Source: Escherichia phage JLBYU28. Taken from it: 64,000 bases of DNA. The stretch lies in sequence record OK272472.1; one strand, 5' to 3'. A model generated the notes under the pieces. That model had not been told where the DNA came from. It saw only the letters and a program-made list of their open reading frames with translations, and searched no databases. Shown one piece after another: positions 53,263 through 53,865 of the stretch (within the stretch, counting starts at the first letter, position 1; every line of letters begins with the position of its first letter). The position numbers and the translations under genes are program-made.

Positions 53263-53397
53263 CCAGACCGTTGTTTATCATCTTAAGTGCTACCATTACA
53301 CCAACTCGACATCTGTCGAGTGAAGGAATCGAACCTTCTCCTTTTCTTTACCGAGAAATAGATTGTTTAAGTTTTGCTGTAAACGGTCTTCTGTAAA
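53263..53397 (-). repeat. Hairpin repeat unit 1 (CCGT/ACGG type) enclosing the tRNA-like fragment
   Basis: CCAGACCGT (53263-53271) pairs with ACGGTCT inside TTGCTGTAAACGGTCTTCTGTAAA (53374-53397). Confidence 0.5.
53290..53340 (-). pseudogene. tRNA-like fragment: T-arm plus adjacent hairpin, no complete cloverleaf
   Basis: GAAGG-TTCGATT-CCTTC followed by the self-complementary ACTCGACA..TGTCGAGT; no D or anticodon arm found. Confidence 0.4.
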
Positions 53398-53406
53398 TTT
53401 GTTGAG

Positions 53407-53483
53407 CCAGACCAAGTTTTAAATTTTTTCAAAATTAAATTGTCTTGAAAATATCATACGTACTTGCTGTAATTGGTCTTCTG
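53407..53483 (-). repeat. Hairpin repeat unit 2 (CCAA/TTGG type)
   Basis: CCAGACCAA (53407-53415) pairs with TTGGTCT inside TTGCTGTAATTGGTCTTCTG (53464-53483). Confidence 0.5.
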
Positions 53484-53544
53484 CTCCTTTAAAGAATACT
53501 CGTAAGAACTCTTTAAGGGAGGGGCTAAATAGCCCTCTCAAAAT

Positions 53545-53621
53545 TGGCGGTTAGTCAGGGATTCGAACCCTGTGCCATTCGCTTAACAGGCGACCGCACA
53601 TACCTTATGTGCTTCCTAACC
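53545..53621 (-). tRNA. tRNA-Asn (anticodon GTT)
   Basis: D-stem GCAC/GTGC, loop CTGTTAA, T-arm CAGGG-TTCGAAT-CCCTG, discriminator G, CCA encoded. Confidence 0.7.
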
Positions 53622-53634
53622 ATGTTTAGTATTA

Positions 53635-53704
53635 CCAGACCGTATCTTTCAATTTTTTACGCTAAAAATTTAATAAGTATTGCTGTAAACGGTCTTCTGT
53701 AAAA
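53635..53704 (-). repeat. Hairpin repeat unit 3 (CCGT/ACGG type)
   Basis: CCAGACCGT (53635-53643) pairs with ACGGTCT inside TTGCTGTAAACGGTCTTCTGTAAAA (53680-53704); AT-rich loop. Confidence 0.5.
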
Positions 53705-53781
53705 TTGGAGGCGGGTGCAGGAGTCGAACCTGCCGATACCATGCTAATGAGACATGTGAGACGCCCTTTCTCTATACCCGC
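53705..53781 (-). tRNA. tRNA-Met/fMet-like (anticodon CAT), second copy
   Basis: D-stem GAGA/TCTC, stem CATGT/GCATG with loop CTCATTA, T-arm GCAGG-TTCGACT-CCTGC; terminal acceptor pair mismatched. Confidence 0.55.
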
Positions 53782-53793
53782 AATTCTTAATGA

Positions 53794-53865
53794 CCAGACC
53801 AAATATCTTCTTTGTCCGATTTCTTGTCAGATGAGTAGATTAAGTTTGCTGTAATTGGTCTTCTG
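53794..53865 (-). repeat. Hairpin repeat unit 4 (CCAA/TTGG type)
   Basis: CCAGACCAA (53794-53802) pairs with TTGGTCT inside TTGCTGTAATTGGTCTTCTG (53846-53865). Confidence 0.5.

Follow-up and report, generated by a model that had tools for sequence, protein, structure and literature searches.

The window analysed here is a 64,000-nucleotide (nt) stretch of Escherichia phage JLBYU28 (sequence record OK272472.1), a Felix O1-like myovirus (Felixounavirus). It contains 22 transfer RNA (tRNA) genes, all on the minus strand between positions 49284 and 54034. Four hairpin repeat units are interspersed in the promoter-proximal part of this cluster, and they lie 340-940 nt downstream of a gene for a Ro60-like protein, on the same strand. 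Ro60-Y RNA particles are a conserved and poorly understood RNA-surveillance machine. The units had been picked out in an earlier reading of the sequence, referred to here as the original prediction, and all four were recovered, each in minus-strand sense. Comparison with distant phages and genomes places the units in a family of small structured RNAs whose stems covary and whose members accompany genes for one type of protein in a strand-specific manner. Coordinates of the units, their parts and the neighbouring features are collected in Table 1.

The four units are built to a single plan. In the minus sense the layout is 5'-(4-bp outer arm)-AGA-AGACC(GU/AA)-UUACAGCAA-loop-(AC/UU)GGUCU-G-(outer arm)-3', with 36, 43, 48 or 102 nt of loop between the motif and the 3' arm. 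We refer to the 7-bp helix and its adjoining motif as the handle. The 19-nt core pattern AGAAGACCNNTTACAGCAA has four exact copies, all on the minus strand between 53374 and 53864, and none elsewhere in the 64 kb. When up to 3 mismatches are allowed, 0.3 chance matches are expected in the window, and none of 100 shuffled sequences gave 5 or more. RNAfold predicts a common base for all four units, consisting of the 4-bp outer helix, an AGA/G internal loop and the 7-bp helix. The outer helix itself varies in sequence among the units, and the A/U-rich 48-nt loop of unit 2 holds a small hairpin. The two stem variants are distributed as originally described, one in units 1 and 3 and the other in units 2 and 4. 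The placement relative to tRNA genes also agrees, with unit 4 before tRNA-Met, unit 3 before tRNA-Asn (it ends about 10 nt before the tRNA 5' end) and unit 2 without a tRNA. The compensatory change that had been proposed is, within the window, a single two-pair swap common to two pairs of units, as the original prediction itself cautioned; independent covariation emerges once distant relatives are added.

The 861-nt unit region matches 259 phage records at 80-99% identity, Felix O1 among them. When aligned with those of pinkbiff, Felix O1 and 35FD, the units prove to be kept, with loops that vary. One relative has AGACUGU facing ACGGUCU, which gives a G-U pair in minus-sense RNA only. Rfam scans of the region (E<=1 and E<=10) and of 15 distant loci (gathering score) returned tRNAs and transfer-messenger RNAs (tmRNAs) only, and no family fits the units. 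The best Rfam matches to units were to Dicty_Class_I_RNA at chance level (E = 0.35 and 1.2), and the tmRNA and permuted-tmRNA models matched no unit. An intrinsic terminator was rejected as an explanation: the units are absent from the terminator scan, their loops span 36-102 nt and a U tract is absent. A promoter or terminator reading of the motif was also set aside, with no enrichment in a consensus scan and a fit to neither pattern. A separate candidate at window positions 61908-62077 (minus strand) is antisense to coding genes, stands at chance level and was discarded.

Unit 1 has an elaborate loop. The original prediction described it as enclosing a tRNA-like fragment; tRNA-like sequence is indeed enclosed, and it makes up a complete, circularly permuted domain and not a remnant. 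From 5' to 3' the elements are an anticodon-stem-like helix, a variable (V) arm, a T arm, a closed 7-bp acceptor stem, a D arm, the 3' strand of the first helix and the 3' arm of the handle. The first inner helix has 4-5 bp (CUUA(A)/(U)UAAG) and leads into a long V stem-loop. The 7-bp stem is present and an encoded CCA is absent. RNAfold assigns unit 1 a free energy of -36.1 kcal/mol (z = -3.35), and the descriptor scan presented below also picks it out. Neither ARAGORN nor the Rfam model RF00005 calls unit 1 a tRNA. When the unit was artificially re-permuted to the normal tRNA order, ARAGORN called one of four constructs, with an odd fold. Within the window, the permuted domain is found in unit 1 only; units 2-4 are without it, as YrlB-type RNAs are.

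We searched for similar units around distant homologues of the Ro60-like gene, whose product bears the DUF2828 and DUF7788 domains. The descriptor called for a 7-nt arm separated by one spacer base from U-W-C-M-G-C-A-R, then a loop 15-200 nt long and, last, the complementary arm with a G after it. In a sample of 75 distant IMG/VR loci, in which the DUF2828 protein is at most 47% identical to that of the window, this descriptor found 86 units on the gene's strand vs 2 on the opposite strand, and shuffled sequences gave 0-4. With a slightly relaxed spacer, 67 of 98 units in the IMG/VR loci lie less than 500 nt from the gene, either upstream or downstream and often in tandem arrays. An independent replicate with 80 loci from GTDB genomes yielded 118 same-strand units vs 12 on the opposite strand, and 65 of the 80 loci were positive.

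Individual phages illustrate the arrangement. Mycobacterium phage BigCheese has three tandem units in a 370-nt gap after its "Ro-like" gene, the middle one being a permuted tRNA mimic, and tRNA is absent from the locus. The homologues of Listeria phage A511, Campylobacter phage CPX and Klebsiella phage KP13-26 likewise have units as immediate neighbours. Apart from the DUF2828 gene, no gene family is conserved in the unit neighbourhoods. DUF2828 genes often adjoin tRNA clusters; 23 unit-bearing loci, however, have no tRNA within about 4 kb in the fetched flanks, and the tRNA clusters of T5 and T4 have neither a unit nor a match to the covariance model described next. The units are therefore associated with the gene and not with tRNAs.

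Taken together, the two collections (155 distant loci) contain 228 units with 149 distinct stems and the same motif, U-W-C-A-G-C-A-A. The first three pairs of the stem favour A-U, G-C and G-C/A-U, and the remaining four vary freely. The handle module is a 7-bp helix formed by the 5' and 3' ends, starting A-U, G-C, R-Y, with single-stranded U-W-C-A-G-C-A-A after the 5' arm; the 3' arm has an A-rich stretch before it and a G after it. In a motif-first test, 88 of 171 same-strand motifs had, no more than 220 nt away, a perfect 7-bp complement to the 7-mer that precedes the motif, compared with 10-16 in three controls. This test is non-circular, and neither it nor the descriptor scan shares the model-fit bias of the covariation alignment.

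A covariance model, R1, was built from only five nearly identical Felix-like copies of unit 1. It gave 30 matches in the distant loci, all on the gene's strand, the best in locus L078 (5.5e-11), locus L022 (1.8e-8) and BigCheese (2e-7). The model also finds unit 3 (32.6 bits, E = 3.7e-4) and unit 4 (25.7 bits, E = 0.013) of the window. In the R1 alignment 91% of cells are paired, vs 38-44% with slid partners, and the covariation score is 0.488 vs 0.04-0.07. Double-sided changes occur in 35 of 35 pairs, including all 7 of the handle. Pairing is highest in the handle (98.6% of cells) and T arm (97.4%), followed by the acceptor-like stem (92.1%) and D arm (91.7%). Distant matches and covariation far above controls support the proposal of a selected RNA structure rather than drift, and the small-RNA option of the original prediction is supported as well. 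That prediction would have been refuted had homologous phages held the motifs only as verbatim duplicates, and they do not.

The handle is combined with diverse loops. In the distant loci some are permuted tRNA mimics and others non-permuted tRNA-like domains; several further structured classes are conserved, and short loops rich in A/U occur as well. Tandem arrays reach 5-6 units with differing loops, tRNA mimics included. Examples of the handle with other cargo are L048 3734-3833, L058 3758-3853, L078 6520-6615, L010 3133-3232, L014 149-280, L015 1265-1373 and L022 3734-3828, with more in L040, L056, L063, L069 and L076. The non-permuted tRNA-like loops of some distant units are called tRNA-Thr or tRNA-Asn by ARAGORN. 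One conserved loop class carries GAACCUUUCUGGAGGGGAAAGCAAAAACUCGCCAA and another has loops of about 141 nt. In the permuted mimics at L058 5563 and L075 5843 and 8527, a discriminator base and CCA come right after the acceptor 3' strand, followed by a short linker and the acceptor 5' strand. By eye, an encoded CCA is seen also at L048 5422 and L078 5686, 5820 and 6743. The encoded N-CCA of these mimics suggests maturation into a two-piece RNA with a tRNA-like 3' end. Short-loop units in L017, L021, L025 and L057 contain AGCAA two or three times per loop (for example ACAGCAA...AAGCAA...AAGCAAA). This repetition hints that AGCAA is a recognition element in its own right. The DUF2828 gene has a tmRNA and a permuted tmRNA within a few kb, on its own strand, in two metagenomic phage loci (L023 8236-8685 and L026 257-707).

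We next consider the protein. An AlphaFold model of the 471-residue product, made with 36 diverse homologues, has a predicted local distance difference test (pLDDT) score of 87 and a predicted template modelling (pTM) score of 0.87. The predicted fold is Ro60-like. In a Foldseek search of the PDB, the ten best matches are all Ro60/TROVE structures, with E values of 3e-8 to 1e-6 and template modelling (TM) scores up to 0.67 over the full length (about 530 aligned columns). The top match is 2i91 (E = 3.2e-8, TM 0.66), and the others include 1yvr, 1yvp, 2nvo, 9kop and 9l5y. This set comprises Xenopus Ro60, D. radiodurans Rsr and the Ro60 of Thermus phage phiLo, and lower-ranked matches are to isolated von Willebrand factor A (vWA) domains only. 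The vWA domain has a MIDAS motif (metal ion-dependent adhesion site), D279-V-S-S-S283, and residues D279, S281, S283, T349 and D381 are invariant in the 36 diverse homologues. DUF2828/DUF7788 homologues occur in 709 phage records of the collection searched, and those of mycobacteriophages are annotated "Ro-like RNA binding protein". They are found also in many bacterial genome bins, and the DUF2828 domain appears in plant papers. We propose that the product of this gene is the protein partner of the units.

Table 1. Features in and around the repeat units. Positions are those of the 64,000-nt window; RNA sequences are given in minus sense.
Feature	Position	Strand	Description
Unit 1, YrlA-like Y RNA candidate	53260-53396	-	Handle AGACCGU (53383-53389) / ACGGUCU (53265-53271), then G; outer helix UUAC/GUAA
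Unit 1 motif	53374-53382	-	UUACAGCAA; directly 3' of handle 5' arm
Unit 1 T arm	53322-53338	-	GAAGG-UUCGAUU-CCUUC; canonical
Unit 1 acceptor-like stem	53304-53321	-	Perfect 7 bp, ACUCGAC/GUCGAGU, AGAU tetraloop; U8-G9 next
Unit 1 D arm	53287-53301	-	GUGU-AAUGGUA-GCAC; D loop with GG
Unit 2	53404-53486	-	Outer helix GAGC/GCUC; handle AGACCAA/UUGGUCU; motif UUACAGCAA
tRNA-Asn	53545-53621	-	Preceded by unit 3
Unit 3	53632-53702	-	Outer helix UUAC/GUAA; handle AGACCGU/ACGGUCU; motif UUACAGCAA; 36-nt loop
Second tRNA-Met	53706-53782	-	Between units 4 and 3; 28.5 bits by Rfam tRNA model, slightly under gathering score
Unit 4	53791-53868	-	Outer helix UGAC/GUCA; handle AGACCAA/UUGGUCU; motif UUACAGCAA; 43-nt loop; between tRNA-Glu and tRNA-Met
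Polycistronic context	53040-54034	-	Transcript order: tRNA-Pro, tRNA-Glu, unit 4, tRNA-Met, unit 3, tRNA-Asn, unit 2, unit 1, long hairpin, tRNA-Lys
Two sigma-70-like promoter matches and 12-bp hairpin	54061-54181	-	TTGACA-17-TAATAT; TTGACA-18-TAAAGT with TG; consensus scan
Ro60-like protein gene	54200-55615	-	471 amino acids; Pfam DUF2828 + DUF7788; PHROG 850 "RNA-binding protein"; alpha-helical repeat domain + vWA domain
DUF5681 gene	55698-56069	-	123-amino-acid protein; just upstream of Ro60-like gene

The remaining features of the locus are as follows. The promoter-like sites are located between the stop codon of the Ro60-like gene and tRNA-Pro. Transcription of the tRNAs and of units 4 to 1 probably begins here, on evidence that is weak: the consensus scan that located them showed no enrichment over shuffles, and we treat them as a lead and not as evidence. 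The DUF5681 gene is not kept beside DUF2828 genes in the distant loci. A tRNA at 52463-52541 (minus strand) scores 31.2 bits with Rfam and is not called by ARAGORN. Close relatives carry tRNA-Tyr and tRNA-Asp in the interval from tRNA-Asn to unit 2; both have been deleted from the window. About 240 nt, with the pseudo-tRNA-Tyr and the tRNA-Asp of pinkbiff and Felix O1, are missing at window positions 53530-53545 (compare L001 1125-1290), and the deletion junction falls within ...CCGCCAA, the 3' end that tRNA-Asn and tRNA-Asp have in common. In phage 35FD these two tRNAs are separated by an inserted HNH endonuclease gene.

Other hairpins are also present in the cluster. A perfect 22-bp inverted repeat (24 bp when folded) encloses about 100 nt at 53118-53261 (minus strand), between unit 1 and tRNA-Lys. 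RNAfold gives this hairpin -55 kcal/mol (z = -5.65). It holds a mini-hairpin, AGAC-CUUAAGCAA-GUCU-GG, that is a miniature likeness of the unit handle and motif, and the whole may represent either an RNase III site or a long-hairpin RNA like YrlB. A possible fifth unit at 50949-51157 (minus strand) has the form (U)AGAGCCA-UU-UGCAGCAA ... UGGCUCU-GG, with a 183-nt loop closed by a helix of 10 bp. It is flanked by tRNA-Leu(caa) and tRNA-Gln(ttg), it is also present in L006 and L007, and its loop may hold a small open reading frame; R1 does not match it. Short hairpins of a second family, with the conserved loop UUCUUACGAG (minus sense), occur in the tRNA cluster at 50368-50392, 52550-52574 and 53489-53513. 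A 26-nt inverted repeat at 51878-51968 is related to these hairpins.

We compared the units with known small RNAs. Bacterial YrlA has the order anticodon arm (AC), V arm, T arm, acceptor stem (AS), D arm, and its gene is no more than 4 kb from that of Ro60 and on its strand (Chen et al. 2014, PMC4201824; Wang et al. 2018, 10.1101/312249). It is normal for one locus to encode several Y RNAs, and co-transcription with tRNA is normal too (PMC4201824; 10.1101/312249). Y RNAs of this type are also characterised by binding to Ro60, which stabilises them, and by tRNA-type modifications (psi55, D). The units share many features with the YrlA RNAs of S. Typhimurium, M. smegmatis and mycobacteriophage ET08. 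Their 5' and 3' ends are paired (the terminal stem of YrlA bears the protein-binding site), unit 1 has the permuted order AC-V-T-AS-D-AC and a long V arm of the class-II-like kind common in YrlA, further candidate Y RNAs that are not tRNA-like stand alongside, and a Ro60-type gene, here Ro60-like by fold only, is nearby on the same strand. M. smegmatis YrlA also has a 7-bp acceptor stem, as in unit 1; it is cleaved by RNase P and gains CCA (PMC4201824). The units differ from YrlA in carrying U-W-C-A-G-C-A-A beside a terminal helix of exactly 7 bp instead of GNCGAAN0-1G. They differ further in that the candidate partner is a DUF2828/DUF7788 protein and not a Pfam TROVE protein, and in that the units sit in a phage tRNA cluster.

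Thermus phage phiLo provides a phage precedent, with a Ro60 homologue (phiRo60) and two Y-like RNAs, Yrl1 and Yrl2, beside its gene; a role proposed for it is the hijacking of host RNA enzymes for escape from defence (PMC12135203). The phiLo system has a recognisable Ro60, its Yrl RNAs were chosen by a CGAA motif and a stem-bulge-stem, and their binding was demonstrated by electrophoretic mobility shift assay and cryo-electron microscopy, whereas the units here are putative ligands; no tRNA-like domain is described for Yrl1 or Yrl2 in the text available (PMC12135203). Metazoan Y RNAs likewise combine a terminal stem for Ro60 with a variable, protein-recruiting loop and have several paralogous RNAs with one handle, but they are of RNA polymerase III origin, have a bulged-C helix with GGUCCGA and lack a tRNA-like domain. 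The rnaC and rnaD of T4 and the RNA1-RNA3 of T5 ("tRNA-like stable RNA with unknown functions") are small, stable, partly tRNA-like RNAs that, like the units, are co-encoded with phage tRNAs. Their clusters differ in having no handle motif and no R1 match, and T4 and T5 appear, from organism counts among the homologue records, to be without a DUF2828 gene. Two-piece (permuted) tmRNA is also encoded by a circularly permuted tRNA-like gene, and some distant units similarly encode N-CCA after the acceptor 3' strand, but the units have neither a tag reading frame nor pseudoknots. Literature searches on DUF2828, Ro-like and TROVE with phage, and on Felix O1, found no description of the motif or the RNAs. 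The units are apparently an undescribed and widespread family of small structured RNAs.

A sister phage offers a possible link to anti-phage defence. The PhageMaP preprint reported that gp130 of Felixounavirus Bas63, Ro60-like by structure and encoded directly upstream of tRNA genes, counters the Ppl defence (PMC11482910). The same preprint guessed that some annotated tRNA genes are Y RNAs and identified no RNA (PMC11482910). The gene of the window is presumably the same one. The units described here are not annotated tRNAs.

We interpret the four units as genes for Y-RNA-like small non-coding RNAs that would partner the adjoining Ro60-like protein, and we put the probability of this reading at roughly two in three. 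In the best reading of the data, they are Y-like RNAs with a new protein-binding handle, paired with the DUF2828 branch of Ro60-like proteins. The units would be transcribed together with the tRNA cluster, perhaps from the promoter-like sites, and would be excised by the nucleases that mature the adjoining tRNAs. Their paired ends may then shield the excised RNAs, and the Ro60-like protein would bind them through the handle. By analogy with complexes of Ro60, Y RNA and polynucleotide phosphorylase (PNPase), the variable loop may tether the protein to other factors or gate its access to them. The role during infection is likely to be RNA surveillance or repair, or counter-defence.

Several points weigh against this interpretation. 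The protein gives only DUF7788 and DUF2828 in Pfam, with no TROVE match, and neither phmmer nor a sequence profile run against the PDB sequences reaches a Ro60. The proposed Ro60 homology is consequently carried by the predicted fold and by the annotation of others. The known Ro60-binding signatures, GGUCCGA of animals, GNCGAAN0-1G of YrlA and CGAA of the phiLo Yrl RNAs, are missing from all four unit sequences. Expressed alone, from a plasmid or from T7, gp130 rescued T7 from Ppl (PMC11482910), so its anti-Ppl activity does not need phage RNAs. The descriptor finds no unit in 22 of 75 IMG/VR loci and 15 of 80 GTDB loci. Finally, the covariation alignment is fitted to its model, so that its counts lean towards structure, and single mismatches in the handle are divided between G-U (3) and A-C (3), counts too small to prove selection at the RNA level.

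The most serious rival supposes that the handle is read by another factor, for example a host RNA chaperone or nuclease or a different phage protein, and that the Ro60-like protein acts in the same pathway without binding the handle. We regard this as rather unlikely. It would explain the absence of the canonical motifs and would sit comfortably with the action of gp130 against Ppl without the RNAs, and the repeated AGCAA of some short loops could suit a single-strand RNA binder. The DUF2828 gene is nevertheless the sole gene conserved beside the units, in hosts of several phyla, which argues against a host-specific factor. It is improbable that the units act in cis on the phage tRNA operon, as signals for processing or stability that host RNases read and that are not directly related to the Ro60-like protein. 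They are interleaved with tRNAs in the window, two of them directly before one, and the frequent proximity of DUF2828 genes to tRNA clusters means that the association could be indirect. The 23 loci without tRNAs, the three units after the gene in the tRNA-free BigCheese locus, and the unit-free clusters of T5 and T4 all contradict such a role, and the processing-site option of the original prediction is unlikely for the first of these reasons. In addition, Actinobacteria, Firmicutes, Campylobacter and Proteobacteria differ in their RNases and phages of all of them keep the motif, and the elaborate tRNA-like domain of unit 1 would be superfluous in a cleavage signal. We give a similarly low chance to autoregulation, in which the units would be cis-regulatory sites in an untranslated region of the mRNA of the Ro60-like gene and not free RNAs. 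In its favour, most units elsewhere are no further than 500 nt from the gene and share its strand, but in the window they are 340-940 nt downstream, with two tRNAs and the promoter-like sites in between. Arrays of as many as 5-6 tandem units with varied, elaborate loops also fit such sites poorly, and known Y RNAs are placed likewise and are processed from the Ro60 operon transcript (PMC4201824).

Explanations that do not involve a functional RNA fare worse. The arms are short inverted repeats, and relatives carry HNH endonuclease insertions and the tRNA-Tyr/Asp indel in this region, so DNA-level elements were considered (miniature mobile elements with terminal inverted repeats, recombination sites or homing-endonuclease targets). 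These are very improbable. The four copies are confined to one strand and to 600 nt, the asymmetric motif and the 3' G are strand-specific (86 vs 2), the stems covary around a motif that is constant across phyla, and the indel junction is at tRNA 3' ends and not at the units. The mobile mini-element suggested in the original prediction is disfavoured by the same strand-specific clustering and by the tie to one gene elsewhere. The caveat of that prediction, that the units are two duplicated types of spacer without selected structure, is suggested by the window itself, in which only two stem variants occur, each twice. It has next to no chance of being correct: pairing is kept through 149 distinct stems from unrelated phages, and the strand counts, the motif-first test, the R1 matches, the covariation and the GTDB replicate all refute it.

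To our knowledge, RNA partners in bacteria and phages have been found for canonical TROVE proteins only, and we know of none for the DUF2828/DUF7788 family. The 7-bp helix with UWCAGCAA, common to hundreds of neighbouring RNAs, offers a concrete candidate binding site for such proteins. The units offer an explanation for the "empty" spacers and "pseudo-tRNA" fragments in tRNA clusters of the Felix O1 type, and they would supply the missing component in explaining how gp130 of Bas63 defeats the Ppl defence. They would also constitute a second, independent case of circularly permuted tRNA mimicry tied to a Ro60-type protein, and they may be a lead on the purpose of the stable non-tRNA RNAs in phage tRNA clusters. 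A broader proposal, which we consider doubtful at present, is that a very large, modular family of handle RNAs provides the cognate ligands of DUF2828-type Ro60 proteins, and that RNase P cleavage and the addition of CCA mature its tRNA-like members, placing a two-piece tRNA mimic on the Ro60-like ring. Were this true, the two-piece mimic would counter host immunity directed at tRNAs or RNA, as a decoy, a sensor or a platform for repair, and the UWCAGCAA handle could be used to look for the RNA partners that DUF2828 proteins have outside phages, those of eukaryotes included.

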